NCBI GenBank assembly: GCA_011043415.1
Contig: DQXH01000040.1
Span: 1 to 59,002, forward strand
DNA from: Thermoprotei archaeon
Lineage (GTDB): Archaea; Thermoproteota; Nitrososphaeria; Geothermarchaeales; JDFR-13
Direction: 5' to 3'
DNA length: 59,002 nucleotides
Shown here: piece by piece, positions 1 through 37,014 of the stretch
Position numbering within the stretch: position 1 is the stretch's first letter
Layout of the letters: every line of letters starts with the position of its first letter
Program-made: the position numbers and the translations under genes
Notes under the pieces: generated by a model
What the model was told of the DNA's origin: nothing
Databases searched by the model: none
What the model saw: only the letters and a program-made list of their open reading frames with translations

Positions 1-1349
1 ACGTTAAATTGCTCTAAATCGAGGATATACATATCGCCATTGGATATAAGTATATTGTTTGATTTAGTATCCCCCAGCGTGAAGCCTTTACTATGAAGCA
101 TCCCCAATATCATACCAAACTTCTTAGCGAAGTCTTGAGCCTCCTTAAACTCCATATTATTTAGAGATAATCCATTAATATAGTCCATTATAATCATTTT
201 AGGACTCCAGACAACTGCATAGACTTTAGGGGTATTTACACCAATAGAATTTAATACATTGAGGCCGATGTACTCGTTAATCAGCCTTTTCCTAGGGTCT
301 AGCGAGAAATGCTTCAACCCTATTAGCCAGAGGAATATAAAGAGCCATTTAAATAGGTAGATGTAAGAATATCTCTTCGCCACCAATTTTCTAACTCCAT
401 CCTCATATTCTATGTCAATTAAATATACTTCACTGAACAGCCCCTTACGCTTAATTCTTTTAATTCTTATATCCTCACCCATAAGCGTCTTGATTACCTC
501 GTCTATCGACTTCGCTTCATTAATGAATACACCTTTAGTAAGCTCTAGTAAAGTATCTGGATCCCGCATTTCTAGAGGAGGCACTATAGACTCAAAACTC
601 CTCCTAATTTTAGATGAGAATTCATCTAAAACGATCTTAGGACTTACTTTAGCAGACCTGCCATGTGTATAATACATTTTAATTCCTCTAGAGATTATCG
701 ATACTATCTCCCTAAGACTACATGGAAGGATTTCAAGATCGGTGAGATATATATAGTCATCTTTAAAAGATAAAAAACCACGTCTATCTAAATTCTCAGC
801 CGCTTTTCTAAAGCCGTCCAAAGACTTTATTAAATTACGATATCCCTTATCCCCATAATATGTTTTATAATAACTGTATTTAACAGGGGGATACGCCATC
901 ATCCTCTTCTTCAATCTAGAGAAGAGAAAATACTTTAATGGTATTCTCATATATTTCAATAGCTCACCATACCTCGATTTTAATAGACACAACTCTTCTA
1001 AAATAGCTCTCTCCTTAAGCCTACACTCTAAACTCTGGATATAATCCCTATTTTTAACAACGTTATATACTGTATATAATCTACCCGACACAAATTCGCC
1101 ATGCTTACCCTCATATACATCTTCTTCAAAAAATGATTTATCCACAAGGAGAATAGAGAGGTAGATGTTATCTACCTTCTTATATAAATATTTAATACAC
1201 TCTTTATAATCCTCGATTATGACGATATAATCATAATCACTTTCCTCAGTAGCATAGCCAGCTACCCTAGATCCATATGCGATGACTGCATACGGTTCCT
1301 TTGGAAGAATCCTCGCCAATAGATCCTCTATCCCCTCATCTCTTTTCAT
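1..1349 (-). CDS. Fusion protein: N-terminal minimal (Pol-beta-type) nucleotidyltransferase domain + C-terminal RIO/Bud32-like atypical protein kinase domain; 3' end runs off the window
   Basis: Minus-strand ORF open from ATG 1349 (in-frame TAG directly upstream) to the window edge; it is absent from the ORF track because no stop lies inside the window. Own translation: MKRDEGIEDLLARILPKEPYAVIAYGSRVAGYATEESDYDYIVI (GS...DxD NTase signature) ... VRKLVAKRY ... MLHSKGFTLGDTKSNNILISNGDMYILDLEQFN (DxKxxN catalytic loop, D-x-x-Q metal site). Overlaps the upstream ORF by 14 nt. Confidence 0.6.
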   Translation of the reverse strand, partial: MKRDEGIEDLLARILPKEPYAVIAYGSRVAGYATEESDYDYIVIIEDYKECIKYLYKKVDNIYLSILLVDKSFFEEDVYEGKHGEFVSGRLYTVYNVVKNRDYIQSLECRLKERAILEELCLLKSRYGELLKYMRIPLKYFLFSRLKKRMMAYPPVKYSYYKTYYGDKGYRNLIKSLDGFRKAAENLDRRGFLSFKDDYIYLTDLEILPCSLREIVSIISRGIKMYYTHGRSAKVSPKIVLDEFSSKIRRSFESIVPPLEMRDPDTLLELTKGVFINEAKSIDEVIKTLMGEDIRIKRIKRKGLFSEVYLIDIEYEDGVRKLVAKRYSYIYLFKWLFIFLWLIGLKHFSLDPRKRLINEYIGLNVLNSIGVNTPKVYAVVWSPKMIIMDYINGLSLNNMEFKEAQDFAKKFGMILGMLHSKGFTLGDTKSNNILISNGDMYILDLEQFN

Positions 1350-2028
1350 CTAGTAAATCCCTCACCTTACTTAAGACATCATCAGGCAAATACATTTTAC
1401 TATAATCTTCGATAGATAATCTTACCCTAAACTCTGTAGAATGTATTAACTTAGTTGGAAGCCCCCTATCAATCCAGTTCCTCTTAATCCTATATCCTAT
1501 CCTACTCTTTCTAATAAAATCGTCGAACCTCTTTACAGCATTTAAAATACTGCCTTTTTTAAATATTGCATCCGGATCGATCTGATATACCTCCTCAAGA
1601 AAGACTCTCCCACTCAATGTAGATGTAGATATTAAGGGATTTATAAAATATTCATTTGAATAGAATTTAATAGCTATATAAATATAATGTAGAAATTCAT
1701 GCGAAAGAATAACAGTATATACCTTCTCATTACCATAGAGTAATAGGGGGAGAGTAAATTCTACCACTGGAGCTATAATATTATTTAACCTCTTTATAGA
1801 AAGATTTGCAAATACGATTGCAGATGATCCGTCATCCATCCATAGCACCCTAGCCTCAGGCACTATTACAATCGGTGGATAAGATAAGCCTCCCGTAGAC
1901 TGAGAAATCTTCTTGAGAGCCTTCTTCAAACCCACCAGACTATTTACACTATTAAAGAATATCCTAGTAGATAGAGACCCATTAAACCATTTAACAACCA
2001 CATCATCAAACTTAATTATATATTTCAT
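1336..2028 (-). CDS. Uncharacterised protein with HExxH (putative zinc metalloprotease) motif
   Basis: 230-aa ORF tightly packed between the DUF359 gene and the NTase-kinase gene. Contains LSHEFLHYIY (HExxH). No family recognised by eye. Confidence 0.5.
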   Translation of the reverse strand: MKYIIKFDDVVVKWFNGSLSTRIFFNSVNSLVGLKKALKKISQSTGGLSYPPIVIVPEARVLWMDDGSSAIVFANLSIKRLNNIIAPVVEFTLPLLLYGNEKVYTVILSHEFLHYIYIAIKFYSNEYFINPLISTSTLSGRVFLEEVYQIDPDAIFKKGSILNAVKRFDDFIRKSRIGYRIKRNWIDRGLPTKLIHSTEFRVRLSIEDYSKMYLPDDVLSKVRDLLDEKR

Positions 2029-5349: not shown

Positions 5350-7581
5350 TTATCCCCTCGCCCATAATGGATTCTTCCTCCTCTTAATCTCGATAATCTC
5401 CTTCAATACTTCACGCATATCTTCAGAAAGCTCACCATAGAATTCTTTTAGTAATTTCCTTGCATCGTCTTCGGGTATATCTACATATAGTATATCTCCC
5501 TCGTCTATATCCCTCCCAACCACAGCCTCCCTAATAGATATTGCAACTTCCATATCTTTACTCGCCTCAGGAATATTTTTACCCATACTTTGAATCTGAT
5601 GAATAGTTCCTATTGATTCACCATCTGAATTCATTACCTTATACTTTTGCTTAATTAAACCTCCTAAAACTCTAATACCAAATATAGCTGGCTTACTCCT
5701 TCTAAATATATATCCCTCTAAAATCATAAACTTCCCGGGTTTAACAAGCTTCTCATACTCCTCATTCCTACGTCTAGTAAATACTTCATTAATCCATGCA
5801 AGATACTCCTCTAAAATCCTATATAATATATTTCCTTTGAATATCGGTATCTTCTTATTCCTGGCGAGCTCATAGGCATCTTCATAAATATCTACATTAA
5901 ACGCCAATATAACCCCCTTCAAGTCATCGAATTCCTTGACGATCTCGGCCTCAACTACATCTTTCTTAGAGACGGGTCCGACATCAGCCTTCCTAATAGG
6001 AATACCGTATCTTTTACACTGCATTATAAATGCCTCCAACGAACCAAGTGCATCAGCCTTAATAACTACGCCTATCTTATCACTTTCGATTTTTATCGAC
6101 GCCAGCTCCTGCTCCACATTTTTAGCATATTTCGAGACTAACGACTCGTCTGATATGGAGTAGAATGGTGATCCGGAGTATGCCTTATCTAGATCGGGGG
6201 CAGTTATAATAATCCCGGCTGCAGGATAACTGGCCTTCACACTCCTAAATTTTTTACGTGGGTCTCTAATCTCATCCAGCGGAGCGGGCATTAATATAGA
6301 TCTAATCCTCCTAACCATAGCACCTTCAGAACCGCCTATAACTAGGTAGTCACCCACCCTAACTACACCGTCTATGTGAATAGTCTTGAGAACCTTACCC
6401 AATCCATGCTCACTAGAGACCTCTAATACAACTCCATAACCTGGTTTACTTAGATCCACTTCCAACTTATCCAGCATAAACCTCTGGACAAGCCCTATTA
6501 ATATAGTCAGTAACTCCTGGATCCCCTCACCCGTCTTAGCGCTAACTGGTACTATGGCCACAGTCTTTCTAAAATCTTTAACCCGGTCGAATCTATCTGC
6601 ATCAAACTTATATGTATTTAAGGCTGAGATTATATATGCGATCTTCTCTTCCAACAAGATTAGAGTATCGCTATCCTGCCTCGTTAAAGAGTCTAAAATT
6701 GATAAAGTATTCTGGGGCTTCCATCCATGAATTAAATCCACTTTATTAGCCGCAACTAGGAAAGGTACCTTCCTATCAATTAGTATCTGAATACTTTCAT
6801 GGGTCTGGGGTTCGAAACCTTTCATAATATCTACAACTAAAATAGCGATATCGGATGCCGACCCACCTCTTCTCCTAAGATTTGAGAAGACCTCATGACC
6901 AGGTGTATCTATTACAAGAAGCCCAGGTACAGTTACTTTAAAATTAAATTTATTTAACAGGGGACGGCATATCTCCTCTATCGTTTCTCTAGGAAACATA
7001 CTTGCCCCAATATGCTGCGTGATCCCACCAGCCTCTCTCAATTGGACTGCGGTTCCCCTAATTTTATCAAGGAGAGTCGTATTATGGACTATGACATCTT
7101 CAACGGCGAAATTCTTTAGTGGAGACGAGATGTCATATACATCTATATGCTCATAATATCTAGAGATATTCTTGACTCTTTTAACATATGTCGTAGGTAG
7201 ATCGTCTGGGGTATATCCAGATATACTAACTACATAATCACCCTCGTTAAGATCTATCGATTTAACATAGTGGAAGACGCCTCTTCCTCTATAGACTAAG
7301 AATGAATGTTCACACGTAGTATCTATAGACGAATCATCTTCAAAACGGATCCTAACATACTTATCAACATATTGTCTCTCGATATAATCAGTGTATATGA
7401 TATAATATCCTTGTGTATATGGGTTGAATGAGATAATAGGGAAATATGGAGAATGATTTTCATATAGATCTCTAAGCGAGATATTCAACGGATTTATTAT
7501 AGCATCTCCACCTATGCATTTACCACTATCAACATGACCTAATATTGTAATTATAGGTTGTCGAATAACTTTATCTGACAT
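5350..7581 (-). CDS. infB: Translation initiation factor aIF5B (IF2 homologue), intein-containing precursor
   Basis: P-loop GHVDSGK interrupted, then TTLLDKIRG..., DTPGH, NKVD; 743 aa precursor, 597 aa after removal of the 146-aa insert. Confidence 0.95.
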   Translation of the reverse strand: MSDKVIRQPIITILGHVDSGKCIGGDAIINPLNISLRDLYENHSPYFPIISFNPYTQGYYIIYTDYIERQYVDKYVRIRFEDDSSIDTTCEHSFLVYRGRGVFHYVKSIDLNEGDYVVSISGYTPDDLPTTYVKRVKNISRYYEHIDVYDISSPLKNFAVEDVIVHNTTLLDKIRGTAVQLREAGGITQHIGASMFPRETIEEICRPLLNKFNFKVTVPGLLVIDTPGHEVFSNLRRRGGSASDIAILVVDIMKGFEPQTHESIQILIDRKVPFLVAANKVDLIHGWKPQNTLSILDSLTRQDSDTLILLEEKIAYIISALNTYKFDADRFDRVKDFRKTVAIVPVSAKTGEGIQELLTILIGLVQRFMLDKLEVDLSKPGYGVVLEVSSEHGLGKVLKTIHIDGVVRVGDYLVIGGSEGAMVRRIRSILMPAPLDEIRDPRKKFRSVKASYPAAGIIITAPDLDKAYSGSPFYSISDESLVSKYAKNVEQELASIKIESDKIGVVIKADALGSLEAFIMQCKRYGIPIRKADVGPVSKKDVVEAEIVKEFDDLKGVILAFNVDIYEDAYELARNKKIPIFKGNILYRILEEYLAWINEVFTRRRNEEYEKLVKPGKFMILEGYIFRRSKPAIFGIRVLGGLIKQKYKVMNSDGESIGTIHQIQSMGKNIPEASKDMEVAISIREAVVGRDIDEGDILYVDIPEDDARKLLKEFYGELSEDMREVLKEIIEIKRRKNPLWARG
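7081..7518 (-). mobile_element. Mini-intein (146 aa, no homing-endonuclease domain) in the aIF5B P-loop
   Basis: The insert starts with Cys (CIGGDAII, block A). It has TTCEHSF (block B, TxxH) and ends VEDVIVHN followed by Thr+1. The flanks rejoin to GHVDSGK|TTLLD. Confidence 0.85.
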
Positions 7582-19249: not shown

Positions 19250-20722
19250 TTATAATAGTCCACTACGTGGAAGATGCTGCGTAGGCGTGACAATGTCATG
19301 AGGCCTTATTTCATAGAAGCCTGTAGGTAGGATTATAGCAAACCTAGATTTTACCCACAACTCCCCTATATTTTTAGCCCCTACATATCCCATCGCAGCT
19401 TTTAAACCAGCGGATAACTCTTTCACTAGGTCGGATACAGTCCCCCTATATGGTACCCATCCCTCAATCCCCTCCTCAATTTCTTTAGAGGGATACGAAT
19501 ATCTATCTAAAGCCATTCTCTTCGCCCTCGCCCTTGCACTACCCATTCCATAATATTCTTTATAATATCTCCCTTCTATCGCAATTAGTCTACCTGGACT
19601 TTCCCTCGTACCAGCAAATAAATTACCCATCATCACAGCAGAAGCCCCGGCGGCTAGTGCTACTGCTATATCACCAGAGTTTTTAATCCCCCCATCAGCT
19701 ATAATTGGGATCCTACCGAAGGCACCTAACTCCTTTAATGCTGATACACTCTCTAAAACCGCAAATAGAGTTGGTGCAGCAACTCTAGTAACTATGCCAG
19801 TCGTGCATATTGATCCTGATCCAATGCCCACCCTCAATCCAGATACATCTTCAATATCAGAGACAGCGTCTAATACAGCCTCTCTAGTACCTAAGTTTCC
19901 GACTATGACGTCTGAATCCACCGATTTAATAATCTTCTTAGTAGCCTTAAAAACATTCTTATTATGAAAGTGGGCTACATCAGTCACTAAAATATCAACA
20001 TATTTAGATAATTTCTTAGCTCTCTCTAAGTCGAATGGAGATATAGCGGCAGCGACTAGTAGCCTACCATTTTCGTCTCTAACAGCATTCGGATACTTAC
20101 CCTTCAACTCCAGGTCTTTATATGTGATAAGGCCGATCAACCTATCTTTATCATCGACTAACGGAAGCTTCTCAATTTTATGCTTCTGCAGGATCTTTTT
20201 AGCCTCATCTATCGTGACACCTGGATGAGTCACTATCAACCTCTCCCTAGGAGTCATCACTTTAGAAACCCTTAAATTAGGCTCACTATACCTTATATCA
20301 CGAGATGTAACCAATCCAACTAATTTACCACTCGATACAACCGGTAATCCATGTATATTCAACTCCTCCATAATCCTCCTAGCATCCTCCACCCTCTTAT
20401 CCGGGGTGATTGTAACCACATCTCTAATAACAAAAGCCTCCGCCCTCTTAACTTTTCTAGCCATCTCAACCTGCTCCTCAACACTACAGTTTCTATGTAG
20501 CACACCTAATCCACCTTCTCTAGCTAATGCAATAGCTAAATCCGCTTCGGTAACCGTGTCCATAGGGGAAGATACAAATGGGATATTAAGCTTATGATTT
20601 TTATCTACATATGTGGATAAATCGATTTCTCTAGGCTCCACTTCAGTCCATCCAGGTAATAAGATCACATCGTTAAATGTCAATGCAATCTTAAAATTTT
20701 CGGGTAGACCAAAGTTATACAT
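19250..20722 (-). CDS. guaB: Inosine-5'-monophosphate dehydrogenase (with CBS pair)
   Basis: LTFNDVILLPG, CBS region, catalytic loop GIGSGSICTT, GGIKNSGD. ATG at M4 of the track ORF. Confidence 0.93.
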   Translation of the reverse strand: MYNFGLPENFKIALTFNDVILLPGWTEVEPREIDLSTYVDKNHKLNIPFVSSPMDTVTEADLAIALAREGGLGVLHRNCSVEEQVEMARKVKRAEAFVIRDVVTITPDKRVEDARRIMEELNIHGLPVVSSGKLVGLVTSRDIRYSEPNLRVSKVMTPRERLIVTHPGVTIDEAKKILQKHKIEKLPLVDDKDRLIGLITYKDLELKGKYPNAVRDENGRLLVAAAISPFDLERAKKLSKYVDILVTDVAHFHNKNVFKATKKIIKSVDSDVIVGNLGTREAVLDAVSDIEDVSGLRVGIGSGSICTTGIVTRVAAPTLFAVLESVSALKELGAFGRIPIIADGGIKNSGDIAVALAAGASAVMMGNLFAGTRESPGRLIAIEGRYYKEYYGMGSARARAKRMALDRYSYPSKEIEEGIEGWVPYRGTVSDLVKELSAGLKAAMGYVGAKNIGELWVKSRFAIILPTGFYEIRPHDIVTPTQHLPRSGLL

Positions 20723-20775
20723 TATAACCACCTTTTTAATTAGGTTAGAACTAGGAAAGAATTTATAAATTTATG

Positions 20776-22359
20776 TTATTCAAACTCTATAGTTGCAGGA
20801 GGCTTATTAGATATATCATATAATACCCTGTTTACCCCCTCAACCTCATTTAAAATCCTCTTAGAAATCCTCTCGAGAAGTTCCCACGATGCTTTATAGA
20901 AATTGGCTGTCATAGCATCCTCACTCTCGACTATCCTAATTACAATGATATATTCATAGCTCCTGACATCACCCTTTATACCGACTGACTTGACTGATAA
21001 TAGGATAGGGAAAGCCTGCCATACCTTATCATATACATTAGCTTTTTTAACCTCCTCATATACTATTTTATCCGCTTTCCTCAGTATCTCTAACTTCCGT
21101 TTAGTAATTCTACCTACTATACGAATAGCTAAGCCAGGTCCTGGAAAGGGATGCCTCAAATATACTTCTGAAGGAAGATTAAGCTCCCTCGCCAATACCC
21201 TAACCTCGTTTTTATATAGATCCTTCAACGGTTCAATAATCTTAAACCTATGCTTACCATATATTACAACATTATGATGAGATTTGATTCTATCGACATA
21301 TTTACTTACAACACCGCTTTCAACACGATCAGGGTATAGTGTTCCCTGAGCAAGATATTTAATATCACCATGTAATTTTTTAAGTCTATCAGCGACATCT
21401 TCAAAAACCTTAATATACGTCTCTGAAAAGATCCTCCTCTTCTTCTCAGGATTCCTAACATATGCTAGATTCTCTAAAAATATTTTAGATGCGTCATATA
21501 TGAAGAAATTCTTGAAATTTAGAATATCCTTATATAGCTCTTCAACCCAATCCCGCTCTCCATCCCTGAGTAGTCCGGTATCTATGAAGACGGGTATAAC
21601 GTTATCATCACCGATTATCCTCCTTAAAATAACTGAAGTAACTGTTGAGTCGACTCCTCCACTTACACCTACTATAACCTTCTCATTCTTCAGAAATTTT
21701 AACTCCTCCTCAAGTAAATCTAATATATTTACTGGACTCCAGTCCCTCCTACATTTAGTATAGAATCTTATGAAATTATCTAGTATTCTAGTACCATAGT
21801 CAGTATGTTTAACCTCAGGATGAAACTGTAAAGTAGTTATTGGATAATCCGTCTTCTCCATCGCAGCGATATTCCCATACTCTGTAAATGCTACTGCATT
21901 AAACCCTTCAGGAACATTTTCCACGACATCCCAATGACTCATCCATACTTTAAACCTTCCTGGAACCCCTGTAAACAGTCTCGACTCCCTTCTCTCTACA
22001 ACAACAGGACCATACTCACGCTTTACACCTCGTTTAACGATTCCACCAAAGTATTTAGCTACCAGCTGATGACCATAACAAATACCTAGTATCGGAAGCC
22101 TATGCTTAATTATTAGAGGTAACTCTATCGATGGATAGGCTTCATTCAATACACTTTTCGGCCCACCAGATAATATAACTCCGCAAGCATTCTTGAGTAT
22201 ATCAGGAACTAAATTAATATCGTCGGGAGAGACTATCTCAGTATACACCCCTAAAGACCTAATCCTCTGACTAATTAAATGAGTATACTGAGAACCAAAG
22301 TCTACAATTAAAATTATATTTCTATTATTCAACCTCGATCCAGACTCATTTATATACAT
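20776..22359 (-). CDS. guaA: GMP synthase (glutamine-hydrolysing), single-polypeptide GATase + ATP-pyrophosphatase
   Basis: GATase GICYGHQL / FHPEV; PP-loop VSGGVDSTV; C-terminal dimerisation domain ending PPATIEFE. Confidence 0.93.
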   Translation of the reverse strand: MYINESGSRLNNRNIILIVDFGSQYTHLISQRIRSLGVYTEIVSPDDINLVPDILKNACGVILSGGPKSVLNEAYPSIELPLIIKHRLPILGICYGHQLVAKYFGGIVKRGVKREYGPVVVERRESRLFTGVPGRFKVWMSHWDVVENVPEGFNAVAFTEYGNIAAMEKTDYPITTLQFHPEVKHTDYGTRILDNFIRFYTKCRRDWSPVNILDLLEEELKFLKNEKVIVGVSGGVDSTVTSVILRRIIGDDNVIPVFIDTGLLRDGERDWVEELYKDILNFKNFFIYDASKIFLENLAYVRNPEKKRRIFSETYIKVFEDVADRLKKLHGDIKYLAQGTLYPDRVESGVVSKYVDRIKSHHNVVIYGKHRFKIIEPLKDLYKNEVRVLARELNLPSEVYLRHPFPGPGLAIRIVGRITKRKLEILRKADKIVYEEVKKANVYDKVWQAFPILLSVKSVGIKGDVRSYEYIIVIRIVESEDAMTANFYKASWELLERISKRILNEVEGVNRVLYDISNKPPATIEFE

Positions 22360-25582: not shown

Positions 25583-25906
25583 TTAATATGTTAATCTAAC
25601 TTCTATAAAAACATCTTCAGGAACCTTCAGCCTAATAAGATGTTTCATCGTCCTCTCATTCTGCTCTATATCAATCAACCTCTTATGTATCCTTAATTCA
25701 AACTTATCCCAAGTCTCCGACCCCTGTCCACATGGACTCTTCCTTGTGGGTATCACGATTCTTCTAGTAGGTAGGTAAACCGGCCCAGAGTATCTCGCAC
25801 CAGTCTTCTCAGCTATCTCCTTAATTTGATTCATGAAATCATCTAATACTTTATGGTCTGTACCTACAATTATTATCCTGGTCTTCGCTTTATAGCTCTT
25901 AGCCAT
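25583..25906 (-). CDS. rps10: 30S ribosomal protein S10 (uS10)
   Basis: ARIIIVGTDHKVLD...GPVYLPT...HKRLIDI; downstream of tuf. Confidence 0.93.
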   Translation of the reverse strand: MAKSYKAKTRIIIVGTDHKVLDDFMNQIKEIAEKTGARYSGPVYLPTRRIVIPTRKSPCGQGSETWDKFELRIHKRLIDIEQNERTMKHLIRLKVPEDVFIEVRLTY

Positions 25907-25955
25907 TAGCCCTCACTTATCTATGTATATTGTAATAAAGGTGAAGTTTAATGCT

Positions 25956-27272
25956 TTAACCCTTGATCTTTATCTCAGCCTTCTTAGTAATCTCTTTAAC
26001 AACACCTGCGGCTATTGTAGTACCCATATCTCTTATAGCGAATCTACCTATTTCTGGGAACTCCTTAAACTCCTCCATAGCCACTGGACGCATAGGTCTA
26101 AATCTGACTACAGCTACATCTCCAGTCTTTAGGAATTTAGGACTCTCTTCTACAACCTGTCCAGTCCTCCTATCTAATTTAGCAATTAACTCAATAAAAG
26201 ATACGGCTACTTGAGCAGTATGTATATGCATCACAGGCGTATATCCGACGCCTATCGCTGTCGGGTGGTATATTATGAAGATCTGGCCGATAAACTCCTC
26301 AGCTACTGTAGGTGGATTATCCAGATGCCCTACCACATCTCCCCTCCTTACATCCTTTCTAGCTATGCCCTTAACGTTGAATCCTATATTATCTCCCGCT
26401 ACAGCCTCCTGCATAGGCTGGTGATGCATCTCAATAGACTTTACCTCACCGACAAGCCCAGGTGGCATGAAGACTACTTTATCACCGACTTTAAGCCTAC
26501 CAGTCTCAATCCTACCAACGGGGACGGTGCCTACTCCCGTTATAGAATAGACATCCTGAATAGGTAATCTCAATGGCTTATCAACAGGCTTTGGAGGCTC
26601 TACAAACTCGTCTAAAGCCTCTATTAATGTCGGGCCATCATACCATGGCATCTTATCAGACTTTCTTATCACATTGTCTCCGGTCCAGGCCGATACTGGT
26701 ATAAATCTAATTTTATCTACCTTAAATCCGAGAGTCTTCAATAACCTAGATACCTCATTCTTAATCTCTTCATACCTCTCCTTACTCCAATTCACTTGTG
26801 GATCATCCATCTTATTAATTACTACAACAACCTGGTCTACACCCAGGATCTTCAGTAGGGATGCATGCTCCCTGGTCTGGCCACCTGGGGAGATTCCGGC
26901 CTCAAACTCACCCGGACGTGCTGAAACAACTAGTATAGCAACGTCAGCCTCACTCGCACCAGTAATCATATTTTTAATGAAGTCCCTATGACCTGGGGCG
27001 TCAATTAAAGTATATTCATATTTCTTTGTTTCGAATCTATAGAATGATAGGTCTATTGTTAGACCACGCTCACGCTCTTCTTTAAGCTTATCCATAACCC
27101 AAGCGAATTTGAATGACTCCTTACCAAGTTTCTTCGCCTCCTCCTCATACTGTTTAATTACTCTCTCGTCAATCGCTCCAGCCTCATATAGTAACCTACC
27201 CATTAAAGTAGATTTTCCATGGTCTACATGTCCTACTGTTACTAGGTTTAAATGGGGTTTCTCCCTAGGCAT
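25956..27272 (-). CDS. tuf: Elongation factor 1-alpha
   Basis: [21 protein letters not shown], full domains II/III; 438 aa. Confidence 0.97.
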
Positions 27273-27316
27273 GCTATCTCAACCTCCAATTCAATTCTAA
27301 GATTATAATATACACA

Positions 27317-27325
27317 TTTATAAAT
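27317..27325 (-). promoter_or_regulatory. Putative TATA box for tuf-rps10 transcript (with GGAGG Shine-Dalgarno at 27283-27287)
   Basis: TTTATAAAT-like element about 45-53 nt upstream of the tuf ATG; GGAGG 11-15 nt upstream of the ATG. Position-based prediction only. Confidence 0.3.
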
Positions 27326-27376
27326 GATACTCTTATGGAGATATATAAATGAGTAAATAAACTAGTTTTTTTAATA

Positions 27377-27958
27377 CTATCTAGAAGCTAGTGCAATCCT
27401 CTCGATTTCAATCCTCTTATTAATTGCATAACTGCCTAGATCATTCTTCGCTGCTAAAATAATTTCTTGCGCCAACGCCTCCTCAATACTCATACGATTA
27501 TTCCTAGCCCTATTTTTAGCTCCCTCTACAATATTCTTCAACGCTACATCTATCCTACGGAGTGGGGATACGTCGACGGATACGGTGTATGCGGCGCCTC
27601 CATATGCAATTGTAGTTACATCCTCACAGGGTCCAGCGTTCTCTATCGCATATACCAGTAATTGAATAGGATTCTTACCAGTCTCAAGCTCGATTATTCT
27701 AAATGCAGCTTTTACAATATTAATTGCTTTCGCCTTCTTACCGCCCATCTTACCCGGCCGCATCAACTTATTTACTAACCTCTCAACTATATTAACCTCA
27801 GCCTTCCCAAACTTCTTATGCTCATGCCTACCTCCACTCCATGGAACTAATACAGGTTTAAGAGAGATATATTGCTTTAAACTAATATCCCTAACTTCAA
27901 CATCCCCGAATGAGTATCTACCAAATAACTTTAGTGAAGGAATAGATTTACTGCTCAT
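27377..27958 (-). CDS. rps7: 30S ribosomal protein S7 (uS7)
   Basis: [16 protein letters not shown]; RLVNKLMR.G...GKK..A..IV..AF.II. Confidence 0.93.
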
Positions 27959-27964
27959 ATTAAA

Positions 27965-28405
27965 CTACCTCTTAGGCTTCTTCACCTTACCAGTTATCAG
28001 AAGCTTTAATGGAACTCCATTAACCATAAATACACGGTATCTTACTCCAGGTAGGTCGCCCATCGCCCTACCTTGGGACCCACCGATACCCTCTATCATC
28101 ACTTCATCATGCTCATCAACGACATTAAGTGCGCCGTCTCCAGGTAAGAAAGCGGTTACTTGCTTACCATTTTTAATTAACTGTACTCGAACACATTTCC
28201 TTAATGCAGAGTTAGGCTGCTTAGATTCTATACCCACCTTCTCTAATACTATAGCACGAGCCATAGGCGCACCCTCAAGCGGATCTGCCTTCTCATCTAA
28301 TCTAAGCATTCTACGCCTATATTTGATATCACTCCATCTAAACTTCTGCCTCTTCATTCTTAACTTTCTAGCTGCAAATAACCCTCTTGGACTCTTCCTT
28401 CCCAT
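27965..28405 (-). CDS. rps12: 30S ribosomal protein S12 (uS12)
   Basis: [30 protein letters not shown]. Confidence 0.95.
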
Positions 28406-28451
28406 AGACCATCCTCTCTATATACGATTATATCACCTTATAAAAATTTTA

Positions 28452-28955
28452 TCATCTAATAAGTATATTAGATACATTAAAGAAAGCCTTTGCAAGCTCC
28501 CTCCCGATCCTAGCTCTCAATCCTCCCCTACCTATAACCACGCCCCTTTTATCTGGAGGAACATTTATATATACGATTGTACTGCCATCGGATCTCTTCA
28601 TTATCCTTATACTATCTTCCCTACTTAATCCAAAGAAATTCTTTATGAACGATATTAGATCATCATTATAGATTACTATATATACCTTCTTCTTGAGGTT
28701 CTCAGATAATAATTTCGCTAATGCAGATACAAACTTCGTCGGCGTATACTTATTATATTTTAAATAACGTGATACATCGTTTACCAACGGCTTATTTATA
28801 AACATCTTATATACATCCCGCTCATGTACAATATAGAATATTATATCCTCGATCATCCTGCATGTAATAGGACTCACTGAAGTAATACCCTCAAATATAT
28901 TCATCAACAGCAATTCATCACTCGAGAGTTTTATAGGCTGATTACTATTAGCCAT
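28452..28955 (-). CDS. nusA: Archaeal NusA-like transcription termination/antitermination protein (two KH domains, first one divergent)
   Basis: LMNIFEGITSVSPITC... and second KH motif KRGVVIGRGGLRARIGRELAKAFF. ATG at M14 overlaps the rpl30e stop by 8 nt. Confidence 0.8.
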   Translation of the reverse strand: MANSNQPIKLSSDELLLMNIFEGITSVSPITCRMIEDIIFYIVHERDVYKMFINKPLVNDVSRYLKYNKYTPTKFVSALAKLLSENLKKKVYIVIYNDDLISFIKNFFGLSREDSIRIMKRSDGSTIVYINVPPDKRGVVIGRGGLRARIGRELAKAFFNVSNILIR

Positions 28956-29214
28956 AGAAAATATCCTCCGAAATCGGAGCAGATCCAATATCATATATAA
29001 CTAATGTTGAGATAGAGTGGGGGCGGCCGCATAAGTCGCCGATTTCAATATTTGTTTTAGTAAGCTTAATCACTGGAATCTCCCTATTTATAGACTTGAC
29101 TAACTTCATAATCTCCTCCTCATGCTCCTCAGGTATATTTCTAGCCAATAAAATAGCTTTTATCTTATCCTGCTCATTACTTAGAGCCCACTTAACATTA
29201 TTAAAGCCTATCAA
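28948..29214 (-). CDS. rpl30e: 50S ribosomal protein L30e (coordinates from the first canonical start, TTG; coding homology appears to continue upstream to about 29274)
   Basis: ...IGDLCGRPHSISTLVIYDIGSA (L30e C-terminal signature). The upstream same-frame translation DIKKIESNLPIIYKTGKV-L-IG matches the family N-terminus but has no ATG/GTG/TTG. Confidence 0.8.
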   Translation of the reverse strand: MIGFNNVKWALSNEQDKIKAILLARNIPEEHEEEIMKLVKSINREIPVIKLTKTNIEIGDLCGRPHSISTLVIYDIGSAPISEDIFYG

Positions 29215-29275: not shown

Positions 29276-32200
29276 TTAACCCACCTCCATATATAAATCT
29301 ACCGAACCAGTGCCAATAGGTACTCTTGAACCTACAATAATATTCTCAGTAGGCCCTCTTAACAAGTCCTCCTCACCCCTCACAGCAGCCCCGACAAGCA
29401 CTGGAACCGTTATCTCAAACGCTGCCCTCGTCAGTACAGAGTCTTTAACCGCCACTACACCATACCTACCCATCTGCCTAATCCTACCATCCCGCGTCAT
29501 AATATCTGCAACAAGCATAATATGACGATAATCTACGTCTAGACCCTGTTCCTCCATTACAGACTTAATCTCATTAATAATAGCGTTCCTAGCCGCCTCA
29601 ATACCTAATACTTCATATATTTCAAATATATCATTTGTAATCGTCCTCACAGGATCTACACCTTCAAATAATAGGACCTCCTTTAAATTACTTCCCGCAG
29701 TATATATAACCCATTCCTCTTCACCAGTCTCTTCATTCACAATCTTCTCCAGCGTCACCCTCACTACATTTGGTATGCCGGCTATATGCCTATCTAAGAA
29801 CCGGTCTCTAGCCTTCCTCAATTTCTCTAGTATAACATATTCGTCAGTCTCGTTTTCCTTTATCTTGATATTAGGCCTTATAATTAAAGTATCCTCCTTC
29901 AATTCAGTTGAATATCTCCTACTAAATATTCTCTTAACCTCTATCGGACTCTTCCCTACCGCCTTCAATGACTCTAAATCTAGTTTAAATATTATGCTTC
30001 TATTTATCAAGTCGATTGTAGCTTCCTTAACCACGTCTCTAAACTGAGTAGCTTTAATGCGATTCGCAACTGCCTCAGCTTTCTCCTGTGAATACCTATG
30101 TTCCTCATCTAAATAGATGATCATCCTTGGTGTGGAAGGTTTCTGTTTAGCGTCGATAATTTCTATAATTCTCGGTAGACCTATGGTGACGTCTTTCTCT
30201 TTTACACCAGCATAGTGGAATGTTCTTAAAGTCATCTGTGTACCAGGTTCTCCTATTGATTGCGCTGCAACTACGCCCACCGCCGCCCCAGGGTCTATCT
30301 TAGCGGTCCTATAATTTATTACAGCCTGTCTAATAGCCTCCTTAGCCACCTCCTTATTCGCCTTCTTCTCAATAAGCTTACTCCATAATTCATCCCTCAA
30401 TGAAGATGGGATCTCAGATTCAACCTTCTTCAATAACTTCTTAATATAGTCTTTAGTAGCCCTCTTACCCTTTGGATATAGCAGTGATATCGAGTCAATC
30501 AGCCTATCAATATTCACAGGCTTACCATGATCACTTCTAGCCGGATCGACAGCATCTTCACCATATTTAAACTGAACTATCTTACCATTCGATGTTCTTA
30601 CTACGAAGTCATGGTCGACATGTAGATCCTCTAGCGAATATACAAGACGCCTATATAAGTAACCACTCTGCTGGGTCTTTACAGCCGTATCCATCAAACC
30701 CTCTCTACCACCCATACTATGGAAGAAGAACTCTGTCGGAGTTAACCCGCTATAGAAACTACTTCCTACGAACCCTCTCGCCCTAGCCCCTATGTCACCC
30801 TCCTTAAATGTCGATAACGTTCTATTATCAAATCCTCTTGATATCCTCCTACCACGTATAGTCTGCTGTCCCAGCATCGCAGTTAACTGTGCAACGTTAA
30901 TGTCAGTCCCCCTAGCTCCACTCATAACCATGATATATAGCGGATTATCTTTACTTAGATATTCGAGGGCTATCAAACCGGCTTGTGTCCTAGCATCCGC
31001 CAAGACCTCATGGATATGTTGTTCTAGGCTCTCTTCAGGAGACAATCCCTTAATCAACTCAAGTTCACCACGTCTATATTTAGCAATGATCTCGTCAACT
31101 TTCTTAATAGCCTCCTCCTCAATTTTCTTAATCTTTATAATAGCCTCCTCTGGAAGCTTCAGATCCTCAATATCAATTGAGAAGCCTGTAAATGTTAGGA
31201 ACCTGTCTAATACTCTAGCGAACTGTGTAATAAACTTTCCTCCAAAACGGTTACCATACTCTCTTACAAGCCTATGTAGTACACTATCAGCCTGCTCAGC
31301 CCCAATTGAATTCTTATCTATAGTACCTTTAAGGAGGACTCCTTTCTTAATGATAACATCCTTATCTAATTTAGATTTCAACGAGTATGTAAATGTCTCT
31401 GGCAATAATATGCTAAACAATGATTTACCCGAGTATTTCCCTCTCTTATGCTTCTTAATTAAGTCCAGCTTTGCAACCCTATCATATGTCGACAATAGAT
31501 TGAAGAATAGATCCTTACTTAATTCATTACCCTCCATAGTCAAGATAAATGCAGAGGTAATGTAATCTTTTCCGAAACCTATTATAGGAGCGCCGTATCT
31601 AGGACTTATTATCTGGTTTTGAACCAGCATTAATGCCTTAGCCTCAGCAGCCGCTTCACTATTCTGCACTACATGCAGATTCATCTCATCCCCGTCGAAG
31701 TCCGCGTTATAGGGTGGACACACCGTTAAATGCAGTCTAAATGTACGGTAGGGTAAAACCTTAGCCACATGAGCCATTATAGACATTCTATGGAGAGATG
31801 GCTGCCTATTGAATAATACTATGTCACCATCCATAAGATGCCTTTCAACTATATCACCTACCTCAAGCATCTCCGCAACTTTATATCTATCTGCATACTT
31901 TAGATACATCCTATACCCGCCTTTTGTGGCTTTAATTACGTAATTAGCTCCGGGATGAATATCAGGACCGTTTATAACCAGTTTCCTCAGCTCTTCAATG
32001 TTATAGGGTGTGACTATCGTACTAACAGTCAGAATCTTTGCAATCTCCTCTGGAACACCTACTTCATTAATATTTAGATTAGAGTCTGGTGAAATTACAG
32101 TTCTTGCCGAGAAGTTTACTCTCTTTCCAATCAAATTATTTCTAAATCTACCTTCTTTACCCGAGAGACGCTGTGCAAGAGTCTTTAATCTCTTAACGCC

Positions 32201-33115
32201 TCTATGTGTGGATGGAGGTATACCAGGTAATTCATTATTAAAGTATGTTGCCACATGAAGCTGTAGAGCATCATAATCATTCTTCAACGCCATGGCAACG
32301 GATCCTGCAGCTTTATCACGCTTAATCTTGTTATTTATCTTTATGACATCTACCAGCTTATGTGTCAGGTCGTCTTCACTACGCTCACCAGTTTCAAGTT
32401 GTATAGATGGCCTTACAGTTAAAGGTGGGACAGGCAACACTGTAAGTATAAGCCATTCAGGCCTCATCGCCTCCTTATCAAACCCATACAGTATCAATTC
32501 ATCGTCGGGAATCCTCTCTAAAATATCTCTAATCTCACTTGGAGAGAGCTCTATCCTTCCTGCCTCAACATGCTTATAGAATTTATAAGGCTTTTCAAAC
32601 TCAATCTTTATACTACTTATACCACAATGTGGACATCTTTCTACGGAGGAAGCCTCCTTAATAACCTTCTTTACAAATGCTTTATACCTATCCGGCAGAT
32701 GCTTCTTTAGAAATTCAGCCCTCTTTATATATACAGGTATCTTCTCAGGGTCTAATTTAATCCTTCCACAATTGTGACAAACCCCTCTTAATGCATTGTA
32801 GATATGATCAGCGAATAGTACGTGGACTACAGGCAGTGACAGTTCAATATGTCCAAAATGACCTGGACAGTGATCCCTATCATTACCACATATTGGACAG
32901 TGTGAACCGGGTTCAGGGGCCCCAAACCTTGGATCTAAGAGGCCTCCGACGGTAGGAGCCCCGACTTCGTCTCGATACGCCTCATTAGTAACTTCAACGA
33001 CAGACATATTCCTAATTATTTGGGGTGATAAAACACCGAACTTAATTTTAGATATTCTATATCTACGCGCCTCTTCTAATAATCCTTTTAATTCACCGAC
33101 TATCCTCTCGCTCAT
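29276..33115 (-). CDS. rpoA: RNA polymerase subunit A, unsplit (A' + A'' in one 1279-aa polypeptide)
   Basis: [27 protein letters not shown] (A' part) and [22 protein letters not shown] to the C-terminus (A'' part) in a single frame. ATG overlaps the rpoB stop (TAATG). Confidence 0.93.
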   Translation of the reverse strand: [1279 protein letters not shown]

Positions 33116-36100
33116 TAAATCACCTCCTCAACATATATCCTAGGATATATCGCCATACTCTTCAACTCATCTAACAGAAGCTTAAATGCATAAGATACAT
33201 TGACAGGAACTAGTGGAGCGTCTGGACCATGGACCGGACACACCAACTTTCTATTTCTAGCATCATAGTAACCTTCTAAACCACATTTTGTACATACGAA
33301 GATAGTTGTCCTATCCGATGCATCAAGTAGACGCTCTTTAATAATCGATGAAGCACCATATGCGACAAATACGTCTTTCTCCATATCACCTATTCTAAGC
33401 CCACCATCTCTCGACCTACCCTCAGTCGGCTGTCGAGTTAGAATCTGGACGGGGCCTCTCGCTCTAGCATGCATCTTATCAGCAACCATATGATGAAGCT
33501 TCTGATAGTATACTATTCCTACGAATATATCAGCTTTAAACTTCTTACCGGTTCTACCGTCGTACATAACTTCGGTTCCCATAGGCTCGAATCCCATGGA
33601 CTTCAGTAACTTACCTAGATCCTCATAATCATACGAGATAAATGGAGTACCATCTACAAATCTACCAGCTAATGCACCGTATTTACCTGCGATGGATTCG
33701 AGGAACTGGCCTACAGTCATCCTTGATGGAAATGCATGTGGATTAATCAGTAGATCTGGTATTATTCCATCTGCAGTATATGGCATGTCTTCTGGAGGAG
33801 CAAGTAGACCTACTACACCCTTCTGCCCATGTCTTGATGCAACCTTATCACCTAATTCAGGGACTCTATGCTCACGTATCTTTACTAATGCAGTTAACTG
33901 TCCCTCTTTATCTAAAGTAAGCACTACTCTATCAACTACTCCAGTAAATTGATCTAGAGTTGTTGAATAATCTCTCTTCTGCTCCGTTAATCCAGCTTCT
34001 TCATATTCCACTAGGAACCTTGGCGGTCCCGTCTTACCTATTACAACATCACCCTTCTCGAGTTTAGCCTCTAAATATGGTAAACCATCTTCTTCAAGAC
34101 TCCTGTATGCGTCCTCGCCAATATAGTTTTTAACGTCTTCACCCGGCTTTTCAAAGCGGTCGCTGACGCCACCGCCATGAAGTCTAGCTGTAGATTCATA
34201 TGTTTTATAGAAGAACGATCTAAACAATCCTCTGTCGACGGCCGCTTTATTAATAACTACAGCATCCTCCATATTATAACTTTCATAAGACATGATAGCT
34301 ACTACTAGATTCTGCCCGACGGGTCTATCGTTCAAGCCGATTAAATCCATAACCCTAGTCTGTACAATTGGCATCTGCGGATACTCAAGTAAATGCCCTC
34401 TCGTATCCATGCGGAGCCTTATATTTGTATATGGAATCCCTAGAGCCTGTTTAGCCATCGCAGCTTCATATGAGTTCCTAGGTGATTGATTATGTTCTGC
34501 AAATGGGATTACTGAAGCAGTTATTCCTAGGAATAAGAATGGAGATAGCTCCAAGTGAGTATGGTCTTTAGTTAATTCCTCCGGGAAGAATGCAGTTAAT
34601 ACATTATACTCCTCATTCGCATCTATCAATTCAATAACACCTATCTTCAGTAGATCCGTGAACTTAAGCTTTCCTTCAGCCACCCGCCTGATATGTTCAT
34701 GCGTCAATAGAGGCTTTCCATCAACCACTCGAATTAATGGACGTAGTATTCTAGCGCTACTCGTCTCAATATATACTTCAGGAACAAGTTTATCCTTATT
34801 ATAATTCCTTACCGCTATACTTATGTCAGGGGGAATTAGACCTCTCCTCCTATATCCTCTCAGTCTTTCGACGAATGTCATTGGATCAGACACAAACCCG
34901 ATAAAATCTCCATTTAAGAAGACTCTAGCGCCGCTCTCCCATAATCTATCATCTGCCTCTTCAACTTTAACCATACCCTCCTCCATTAGGATTCCATATA
35001 TTTTATCTGGGGGATACTCGTTAGAAACTATTGCAGATAAGGCGAGGTTCTTAACTAATCCGATATTCTGACCCTCTGGACTCTCTACAGGACATATCCT
35101 ACCTAGATGTGATGCGTGGACCTCCCGGGCCTCAAACTGCGGCCTACTTCTACTAAGTGGGCTTTGAATCCTTCTTAAATGGCTTAATGTAGATAAGTAA
35201 TTTGTACGATCCAGCATCTGGGTAACTCCAGTAGTTCTCTGTGTCCAAGTTCCAGTAGCTAAGGCGTGATTAAAACGATGTGTAATCTTACTTGAACGAA
35301 CAAGATAAGATAATTGAATTCTAGATTTATACAAATAGTATTTTGTTATATTGTAATGTAGGTCTTTCAATAATGATTTAAGAGATTTTGCAAATATCTG
35401 GCCTAATAAGGGGCCAGCTAATCTCAGACGTTTATTCGCATAATGATCTCTATCATCCGGGTTTCTCCATCCCAATTTAAGTTCAATAGCCCGCCTCACC
35501 ATCTCCGCAAGGAGATAGGCCTTCCTCAATCTATACTCCGGGCCTATACCAACATGTGGGAACAGATACTTATCTAATATATGCCGAGCTCTATTCTTAC
35601 GTCTCTCGATAGGCTGTTGAGCCGCCTGAGTCCTATTACCAATATATAGCAATGCATCTTCCTGGGTGGATACACTCTCATACTTCTTTAATACAGGATA
35701 AAGTTCCTCAATAATTTCTTCCCTCCTAGATACAGCCTCGGCGATCTCACCCTCTTTAACCACTCCTAAAGCTTTCATCACGATCGGGAATGGAATCGGT
35801 GTTAGAGTGAATGGGATTGTGACATATATATTATTCTTTTTCACGGTTACCGTAACATGATTTCTAAGAGAACCTTTTACAGACAGTATCATTGAGATAT
35901 AAACCTTTGTGTTAGATACCTTCTCAACCCTGGTGATTATACTATTCGAAGCGAGATCCTCTAGTGCAACTATAGCTCTCTCACTACCATTAATTATGAA
36001 GTATCCTCCAGGGTCATTTGGATCCTCACCATATCTAATTAACTCCTCCTTAGACTTCCCGTGAAGTACACATATCTTCGATTTAACCATAACTGGAATA

Positions 36101-36498
36101 TGACCAATCTCAACATTATCCTCGATGTATTCAAATCCACCCTGCTTTCTCTTTATAGTAGCTATTATAGGCGCTGCATATGTTAATCCTCTTAATCTAC
36201 ATACTGCAGGTATATAACCACGCTCCTCATCAAGAGGAGAGCCGTCGACATCCTTTATACGAGGCCTATCAACCCTTACATCAGTTATCTCATAGATTAT
36301 CTCATCGTTAGGAGCAATTATTTTAATTATTTTATTTTCTTCAATGATCTCCTTAATTCCCTTCTCAATAAATTCATTATATGAATCTATATGCTGCTTT
36401 GCAAGACCAAACTCTCTTATCATAGCCTCAACTACAGGCCAGGTATCATATTCTAGAGGTTTTGAAACTAGATATTTCTTTATATCTAACCTTCTCAT
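33115..36498 (-). CDS. rpoB: RNA polymerase subunit B (unsplit)
   Basis: Full-length Rpo2: GRICPVESPEGQNIGLVKNLA, SRHGQKGV, GGLRIGDMEKD, C-terminal Zn ribbon CTKCG...CPVHG. ATG at M12 gives a TAA-T-ATG junction with rpoH. Confidence 0.95.
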   Translation of the reverse strand: MRRLDIKKYLVSKPLEYDTWPVVEAMIREFGLAKQHIDSYNEFIEKGIKEIIEENKIIKIIAPNDEIIYEITDVRVDRPRIKDVDGSPLDEERGYIPAVCRLRGLTYAAPIIATIKRKQGGFEYIEDNVEIGHIPVMVKSKICVLHGKSKEELIRYGEDPNDPGGYFIINGSERAIVALEDLASNSIITRVEKVSNTKVYISMILSVKGSLRNHVTVTVKKNNIYVTIPFTLTPIPFPIVMKALGVVKEGEIAEAVSRREEIIEELYPVLKKYESVSTQEDALLYIGNRTQAAQQPIERRKNRARHILDKYLFPHVGIGPEYRLRKAYLLAEMVRRAIELKLGWRNPDDRDHYANKRLRLAGPLLGQIFAKSLKSLLKDLHYNITKYYLYKSRIQLSYLVRSSKITHRFNHALATGTWTQRTTGVTQMLDRTNYLSTLSHLRRIQSPLSRSRPQFEAREVHASHLGRICPVESPEGQNIGLVKNLALSAIVSNEYPPDKIYGILMEEGMVKVEEADDRLWESGARVFLNGDFIGFVSDPMTFVERLRGYRRRGLIPPDISIAVRNYNKDKLVPEVYIETSSARILRPLIRVVDGKPLLTHEHIRRVAEGKLKFTDLLKIGVIELIDANEEYNVLTAFFPEELTKDHTHLELSPFLFLGITASVIPFAEHNQSPRNSYEAAMAKQALGIPYTNIRLRMDTRGHLLEYPQMPIVQTRVMDLIGLNDRPVGQNLVVAIMSYESYNMEDAVVINKAAVDRGLFRSFFYKTYESTARLHGGGVSDRFEKPGEDVKNYIGEDAYRSLEEDGLPYLEAKLEKGDVVIGKTGPPRFLVEYEEAGLTEQKRDYSTTLDQFTGVVDRVVLTLDKEGQLTALVKIREHRVPELGDKVASRHGQKGVVGLLAPPEDMPYTADGIIPDLLINPHAFPSRMTVGQFLESIAGKYGALAGRFVDGTPFISYDYEDLGKLLKSMGFEPMGTEVMYDGRTGKKFKADIFVGIVYYQKLHHMVADKMHARARGPVQILTRQPTEGRSRDGGLRIGDMEKDVFVAYGASSIIKERLLDASDRTTIFVCTKCGLEGYYDARNRKLVCPVHGPDAPLVPVNVSYAFKLLLDELKSMAIYPRIYVEEVI

Positions 36499-36499
36499 A

Positions 36500-36745
36500 T
36501 TAAACCACCAGCCTATAATAGACAGTTTCACCGGCAGTAGGGCTTTTACGTATAATCTTAATCACATCACCCGGCTTAGCTCCAATTACTTTCACAACAG
36601 GATCATTTCGGGATATATATGGTAATTTAAATGGATCTCCCCCAGCATACTTCTTAATAATCTCCTTCTTCTCTCTCTCATCTAGTATAACATGCTTAGG
36701 AACAAGTTTATGAGATAATATAATATTTTTAAGCTTTTCATCCAT
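36500..36745 (-). CDS. rpoH: RNA polymerase subunit H (Rpo5)
   Basis: SHKLVPKHVIL...LP.I...DPV.K.IGAKPGDVIKIIRKSPTAGE.VYYRLVV; 81 aa from the internal ATG. Confidence 0.9.
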   Translation of the reverse strand: MDEKLKNIILSHKLVPKHVILDEREKKEIIKKYAGGDPFKLPYISRNDPVVKVIGAKPGDVIKIIRKSPTAGETVYYRLVV

Positions 36746-36782
36746 ACTCAGTACAACCACCTTCAGATGATATACCAATACC

Positions 36783-36880: not shown

Positions 36881-37014
36881 CGGGCCCGGCGGGATTTGAA
36901 CCCGCGACCCCCGGGTATGAAGCCTTTTTCTTCCCCGGTCCTATCATCCTTACGTCAACGCTTTTATCCATATGGATAAAAGCCCGGTGCTCCACCTGGC
37001 TGAGCTACGGGCCC
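36881..37014 (-). tRNA. tRNA-Lys (anticodon UUU) with a 60-nt intron at 37/38 (intron 36917..36976); CCA not encoded
   Basis: GGGCCCG-TA-GCTC-AGCCAGGTG-GAGC-A-CCGGG-CTTTTA[60 nt]A-CCCGG-GGGTC-GCGGG-TTCAAAT-CCCGC-CGGGCCC-G; mature length 74 nt. Other splice registers give the implausible UCA/UUA anticodons. Confidence 0.8.

Follow-up and report, generated by a model that had tools for sequence, protein, structure and literature searches.

An unsplit rpoA gene in a genome of Geothermarchaeales and its probable vertical inheritance

The A' and A'' parts of the largest subunit of archaeal RNA polymerase (RNAP) are encoded by a single gene, rpoA, in some lineages and by two genes in others. An unsplit rpoA lies in a 59,002-nucleotide stretch of DNA labelled Thermoprotei archaeon (contig DQXH01000040.1 of assembly GCA_011043415.1; hereafter the window, meaning the whole stretch), which raises the question of whether the fusion is genuine and, if so, whether it was retained from an ancestor or regained from a split state. 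The evidence described below points with high confidence to an ordinary, functional rpoA of Geothermarchaeales, unsplit as in Thaumarchaeota, Aigarchaeota and Bathyarchaeia, that most likely reflects vertical inheritance and neither a recent re-fusion nor an error.

One reading frame for both parts of the subunit

The gene (rpoA, encoding Rpo1) occupies positions 29276..33115 on the minus strand, where direct reading of the sequence gives 1,279 codons without an internal stop, followed by a stop codon. Stop codons make up 2-15% of the five other frames of this interval, and the probability that a run of 1,279 codons stays open by chance is about 10^-48. Rpb1 domains 1 to 5 are all found, in order, by Pfam models, and two NCBIfam equivalog models are matched completely: the A' model TIGR02390 by amino acids (aa) 20-873 (profile positions 3-867 of 867; 1169 bits, cut-off 1042) and the A'' model TIGR02389 by aa 902-1276 (profile positions 2-366 of 367; 427 bits, cut-off 421). 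The initial annotation of the window had described one uninterrupted open reading frame (ORF) of 1,279 codons bearing the hallmarks of both parts, and every motif that it quoted was located.

The A'-equivalent (Rpo1N) part, defined by TIGR02390 and by alignment to Sulfolobus Rpo1N, comprises aa 1-881 (30473..33115, minus strand) and includes the clamp, the Zn site (motif at aa 73-89), the catalytic active-site motif (aa 470-479) and the bridge helix (aa 810-831). The A''-equivalent (Rpo1C) part, defined by TIGR02389, Rpo1C alignment and Foldseek, comprises aa 882-1279 (29279..30472, minus strand) and includes the trigger-loop region (block at aa 950-971), the jaw and the C-terminal cleft/clamp; the Zn, catalytic and trigger-loop motifs were placed by motif search. 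Judging from the sequence and a partial structural model, this unsplit A-type Rpo1 would be expressed as one polypeptide of ~145 kDa and would assemble much as A' plus A'' do.

In alignments to solved structures, residues 6-875 (of 880) of S. acidocaldarius Rpo1N correspond to aa 21-876 of the window protein, and residues 6-389 (of 393) of Rpo1C correspond to aa 887-1277. Because the two chains align from end to end and their summed length (880 + 393 = 1,273 aa) matches the 1,279 aa found here, RpoA of the window is A' plus A'' with no extra linker or domain. The initial annotation had likewise proposed a true fusion and not an insertion, a view borne out by this collinear alignment. The two parts meet in an 8-residue loop, YPKGKRAT (aa 880-887; 30455..30478, minus strand), located by junction alignments and AlphaFold2 between a helix at aa 869-879 and a helix at aa 888-898. 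Split genomes end A' and begin A'' at this position; the junction text quoted initially spans aa 873-903 (nucleotides (nt) 30407-30499). The A' tail, the stop codon and the A'' N-terminus of split genomes correspond in the junction alignments to a continuous stretch of equal length in the window, and the distance from the conserved GKxxN motif to the (I/L)P motif is 33 aa here versus 13 + 21 aa in a split locus of Thermoprotei (L079).

The AlphaFold2 model, computed with 35 homologues as input, covers aa 801-1279 only and is of moderate overall confidence (mean predicted local distance difference test score (pLDDT) 69, predicted template modelling score (pTM) 0.50), as expected for a fragment modelled outside its complex. 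Confidence is higher at the join, which is modelled as an ordered helix-loop-helix (pLDDT 86-89 for aa 871-900). The top Foldseek matches of the downstream part include Rpo1C chains as well as continuous RPC1/RPB1 chains.

The split enzymes of Sulfolobus/Saccharolobus, Thermococcus and Pyrococcus (PDB 7ok0, 2waq, 4qiw, 8cro) have catalytic and trigger-loop motifs like those of the window but consist of two polypeptides from two genes, whereas the window has the 8-residue loop instead of a stop and start at the junction. A single polypeptide across the junction is common to the window protein and eukaryotic Rpb1/RPC1, and the eukaryotic chains align continuously over the join by Foldseek (524-636 columns), so the protein might be taken for a large subunit of Rpb1 type and hence for a sign of particular closeness to eukaryotes. 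This is scarcely credible, and the idea was rejected on the joint absence of two Rpb1 features. Rpb1 carries a C-terminal domain (CTD), whereas a search of the 1,279-aa protein for the heptad motif Y[ST]P[ST][ST]P found no such repeats, and the A'' homology, which reaches residue 1276, leaves only 3 residues before the end. The foot is expanded in Rpb1/RPC1, with 173 aa (878-1051) between alignable blocks in yeast Rpb1 versus 72 aa (aa 861-933) in the window. In addition, archaeal Rpo1N and Rpo1C are the solved structures that match the sequence best. The unsplit state itself is probably an ancestral trait rather than one peculiar to eukaryotes, because the bacterial beta' subunit is also unsplit (PMC5484517).

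The window is derived from a metagenome, and a single base change could erase a stop codon; an assembly or sequencing artefact, in which a missed stop or a compensated indel mimics a fusion of genes that are split in reality, was therefore considered. It is extremely improbable and was in effect refuted by the reproducibility and conservation of the gene. The identical 1,279-aa protein is encoded on eight contigs from ENA (ERZ27247980), JGI (3300021472) and Logan (SRR7051320) assemblies, and NCBI nr holds a variant that clusters with the window protein at 90% identity. Relatives at 97, 86, 84 and 77% identity and lower are all fused and of equal length, and the junction DNA contains no homopolymer run longer than 3 nt. 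The junction is also conserved at the amino acid level to the same degree as the rest of the protein: identity is 28/40 at the junction versus 0.77 protein-wide with locus L034, the best-matching genome locus, and 20/40, equal to the protein-wide 0.52, with Bathyarchaeota JdFR-07. Junction length varies by at most one residue among all fused lineages in an alignment that includes Bathy-, Aig- and Thaumarchaeal junctions. On these alignments, the junction evolves at the rate of the whole protein.

Lineage of the genome and distribution of the fused state

The two genome loci closest to the window by RpoA are L034 (77% identity; labelled uncultured Nitrososphaeria) and L001 (72%; Candidatus Geothermarchaeota), and the named protein matches (P0015, P0018, P0020, P0023 and P0024; 57-69% identity) belong to Geothermarchaeota or Geothermarchaeales. 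Two of the geothermarchaeotal matches have already been named 'DNA-directed RNA polymerase subunit A'/A''' by NCBI. The window, L034 and L001 form a monophyletic trio with full support in every tree built, RNAP and non-RNAP (100/100 and 200/200), all of them being rough neighbor-joining (NJ) trees on corrected p-distances. These sequence relationships assign the window to Geothermarchaeota/Geothermarchaeales. Together with L034 and L001, metagenome-assembled genomes (MAGs) of Candidatus Geothermarchaeota (for example, ex4572_27; P0018 and P0020) share its clade, its fused architecture and the full operon order at 59-77% RpoA identity, and the window differs from them at the species or genus level only. 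Geothermarchaeota first received their name on the basis of MAGs from the Juan de Fuca subsurface (PMC5369317), and Candidatus Geothermarchaeota is a phylum of Thermoproteati in the NCBI taxonomy. In GTDB r207 phylogenomics, the order Geothermarchaeales falls together with Conexivisphaerales and Nitrososphaerales in a group to which Caldarchaeales (Aigarchaeota) are sister (PMC10547907).

Five Rpb1 domains are present in all 120 of the best homologues listed, nearly all of which are ~1230-1340 aa long; the two that fall short of this range (1143 and 1176 aa) appear to be incomplete. The state of rpoA was determined at 80 genome loci by locating the catalytic and trigger-loop motifs in explicit stop-to-stop ORFs. 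The gene is fused at 66 loci, split at 13 and unresolved at one (L071). Every sampled locus of Geothermarchaeota, Bathyarchaeia, Nitrososphaeria/Thaumarchaeota and Aigarchaeota (L032, L070) is fused, as are L055, labelled Thermoproteota, and L072, labelled Methanocella. The 13 split loci (L035, L042, L046, L058-L060, L066, L069, L073, L075-L077 and L079) have a stop at the junction and carry the labels Hadarchaeota, Hodarchaeota, Methanosarcinales, Woesearchaeota, Methanobacteriota, Natrialbaceae, Tiamatella and Thermoprotei B12_G17. The three Hadarchaeota-labelled loci are genuinely split. The locus labelled Methanocella sp. MAG113 (L072; JBLNCY010000047.1) has a fused rpoA of Bathyarchaeia type and an RpoB nested deep in Bathyarchaeia, and is probably a mis-binned contig.

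This distribution is consistent with the literature. In Table 1 of Nunoura et al. (2011), the entry for RpoA reads 'fusion' for Caldiarchaeum, Thaumarchaeota and Korarchaeota and 'split' for Cren- and Euryarchaeota (PMC3082918), with an unsplit rpoB common to Thaum-, Aig- and Korarchaeota (PMC3082918); Zhalnina et al. (2014) restate the single rpoA of Thaumarchaeota (PMC4084955). Da Cunha et al. (2017) distinguish A-type from A'A''-type enzymes, mention fused sequences from Thaum- and Bathyarchaeota, another from 'Loki 3' and a fusion that arose secondarily in Pacearchaeota, and use the character in discussing the archaeal root (PMC5484517). No fused rpoA of Heimdallarchaeota turned up in the papers searched, and the Asgard cases are cited here through Loki 3 (PMC5484517). 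The unsplit RpoA of Thaum-, Aig-, Bathy- and Korarchaeota has the same architecture as that of the window, namely one ORF of ~1270-1290 aa with five Rpb1 domains, situated after an unsplit rpoB; these proteins are 46-53% identical to the window protein with a collinear junction, and the window differs by its lineage and its long branch in RNAP trees.

The background given in the initial annotation, in which Cren- and Euryarchaeota normally have split genes and the unsplit gene has mainly been emphasized for Thaumarchaeota, agrees with the literature (PMC4084955, PMC3082918). Its suggestion of novelty does not hold: all sampled close relatives are fused, a state already present in publications and annotations, and the feature is thus real but not novel. 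The fused rpoA was correctly described and is the expected, already documented state for Geothermarchaeota.

Retention or secondary fusion

Two explanations had been offered at the outset for the unsplit gene, retention of the fused state and a secondary re-fusion. Retention is the better supported: combined with the published placement of the order (PMC10547907), the tree, indel and junction evidence makes vertical inheritance of the unsplit state the best explanation. At the join, the bridging residues are LLY-PKG-KRA in the window and IVA-GKG-RPA and NM-KKG-RAA in Bathyarchaeia, alignable and of the same length, a resemblance more readily explained by inheritance of the junction than by independent read-through. 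A scan of RpoA and RpoB for indels found none uniting Geothermarchaeota with Thermoprotei and one weak 1-residue indel uniting Geothermarchaeota with the fused lineages. A 9-10 aa insertion in RpoB that is specific to Thermoprotei is absent from Geothermarchaeota.

Several results weigh against this interpretation, and most of them concern the trees. With 20-state NJ on 2301 columns of RpoA+RpoB, the Geothermarchaeota trio adjoins two split Thermoprotei (81/100); the grouping has 78/100 in the 20-state tree of slow sites and 55/100 after Dayhoff-6 recoding. The non-RNAP proteins of the cluster (S12+S7+EF1a+S10, 834 columns) are equivocal, with Geothermarchaeota joining Nitrososphaeria in 136/200 (20-state) and Thermoprotei in 108/200 (Dayhoff-6). 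These rough distance trees do not nest Geothermarchaeota inside Nitrososphaeria, and placement depends on the method. Expression as a single polypeptide, for its part, is suggested by the conservation of the sequence.

The grouping with Thermoprotei in the 20-state and slow-site RNAP trees and in the Dayhoff-6 tree of the other four proteins would fit a scenario in which a split ancestor of crenarchaeal type lost the A' stop independently of the fusion in Thaumarchaeota, Aigarchaeota and Bathyarchaeia. Such a change would take little mutation. Among the 13 split loci, 11, a count biased upward by a tblastn ranking that favors in-frame loci, have A' and A'' in one frame, separated by a single stop codon (L035, L042, L046, L058, L059, L060, L066, L073, L075 and L077, and, with a gap of 45-48 nt, L069 and L076), and the A'' Met lies 0-4 codons past the A' stop in the split loci inspected. 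A single substitution would fuse the two genes in such loci, and the split/fused character may therefore flip easily. The fusion reported for Pacearchaeota provides a precedent (PMC5484517). Nevertheless, an independent re-fusion is quite unlikely in the case of the window. When Dayhoff-6 recoding is applied to the slowest 60% of RpoA+RpoB sites, the grouping with Thermoprotei falls to 21/100 and a clean bipartition of fused and split lineages appears at 76/100; given the very long branch of Geothermarchaeota, this drop makes long-branch or compositional attraction likely. The missing RpoB insertion, the alignable join of equal length, which would be unexpected under independent read-through, and multi-marker phylogenomics that places Geothermarchaeales inside Nitrososphaeria (PMC10547907) also argue against re-fusion. 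That the RNAP of Geothermarchaeota is the closest relative of the split Thermoprotei enzyme, as uncorrected distance trees suggest, is likewise improbable, if slightly less so.

The phylogenies run on RpoA+RpoB and on S12+S7+EF1a+S10 upheld the monophyly of the trio and left its wider placement varying with the coding. The stem of Geothermarchaeota in RpoA+RpoB (29276..36531 of the window, L001 and L034) is ~0.50 substitutions per site long, and its position shifts with recoding; either accelerated RNAP evolution in Geothermarchaeota or sparse sampling may account for its length. An NJ tree of RpoB only, which included long-branch DPANN-like taxa that were left out of the RpoA+RpoB tree, placed Geothermarchaeota beside those long branches, a position rejected as long-branch attraction.

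Under vertical inheritance, the fused state would have come down from an ancestor common to the other fused lineages. The clamp/active-site/bridge-helix module, which is A'/Rpo1N elsewhere, and the trigger-loop/jaw module, which is A''/Rpo1C elsewhere, would form one polypeptide, joined by a short ordered loop at a reduced 'foot', the site of the stop and new start in split genomes.

Genomic context and significance

Upstream of rpoA on the minus strand are an unsplit rpoB (33115..36531; 1138 aa; NCBIfam NF006335, 1507 bits, profile positions 9-1114 of 1116) and rpoH (36500..36778; NF007129, 101.8 bits). The rpoB stop and the rpoA start overlap by one base in TAATG (33117-33113), and a strong Shine-Dalgarno-like GAGGAGGTGAT (33129-33119) lies just upstream, inside the end of rpoB, these elements together occupying 33113..33129 (minus strand) by direct reading. 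The overlap and the motif suggest that translation of rpoA is probably coupled to that of rpoB, within an rpoH-rpoB-rpoA-L30e-nusA-S12-S7 cluster in which the gene would be transcribed.

Downstream, a conserved cluster identified with NCBIfam models extends from L30e to S10 (25583..29214, minus strand). It comprises an L30e-like ORF of 88 aa with a TTG start (28948..29214; 49 bits versus a cut-off of 77), a NusA-like ORF that overlaps it (28452..28994; 63 bits versus a cut-off of 74), S12 (27965..28405), S7 (27377..27958), EF-1alpha (25956..27272) and S10 (25583..25906), all on the minus strand. The L30e-like and NusA-like ORFs are divergent versions of these small proteins. An RFC-GINS-MCM group is present at 46.3-51.1 kb. 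All of the neighbors named in the initial annotation (rpoH, unsplit rpoB, L30e, NusA, S12, S7, EF-1alpha, S10 and RFC-GINS-MCM) were therefore found.

The description of this operon as otherwise of crenarchaeal type could not be sustained. The order rpoH-rpoB-rpoA-L30e-nusA-S12-S7-EF1a-S10 occurs in Geothermarchaeota (L001, L034) and Nitrososphaeria (L019, L027, L080, and partly in many others), and the identical order from rpoH to S10 is found in Methanosarcinales (L059, L060), Hadarchaeota (L046) and Thermoprotei (L079, L066). Because it is found in fused and split lineages alike, this order is pan-archaeal and no guide to lineage; to take it for a crenarchaeal signature would be a mistake, and RFC-GINS-MCM is equally uninformative on lineage.

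Just upstream of rpoH, a 134-nt element (36881..37014, minus strand) is recognized as a tRNA by Rfam (56.4 bits) and was missed by ARAGORN. Its predicted fold has a normal acceptor stem and T arm and a long extra hairpin past the anticodon region, and it is probably an intron-containing archaeal tRNA; the anticodon loop, read by eye as CU-UUU-AU, makes it possibly a tRNA for Lys. The aIF5B/IF-2 gene (5350..7581, minus strand; 743 aa) has a match to Pfam Intein_splicing at aa 67-167 (33.9 bits, just below the cut-off of 35.8), and its GTPase domain is interrupted, the Pfam match beginning at aa 182 with profile position 50; this pattern suggests that the protein likely carries a mini-intein near the P-loop. 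A gene for 230 aa (1336..2028, minus strand) and a downstream gene for 528 aa (19331-20917 in locus L084) are adjacent and conserved beside DUF359 and Spt4/RpoE, and neither matched any family in a Pfam search.

The practical use of this result lies mainly in checking annotations, in which rpoA of the window is to be entered as a single A'/A'' gene. Whether rpoA is split or not is a classic character of the rare-genomic-change kind, used in arguments on deep archaeal phylogeny, on rooting and on how archaeal and eukaryotic RNAP are related (PMC5484517, PMC4084955). Were the affinity to Thermoprotei nonetheless true, Geothermarchaeota would represent either the nearest unsplit outgroup, tightly bracketing the crenarchaeal A'/A'' split, or an independent re-fusion, and would provide a data point on the number of split and fusion events in archaeal RNAP and on the archaeal root. 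With vertical inheritance as the preferred interpretation, the window adds one more genome to a lineage known to be unsplit and leaves the existing picture unchanged.

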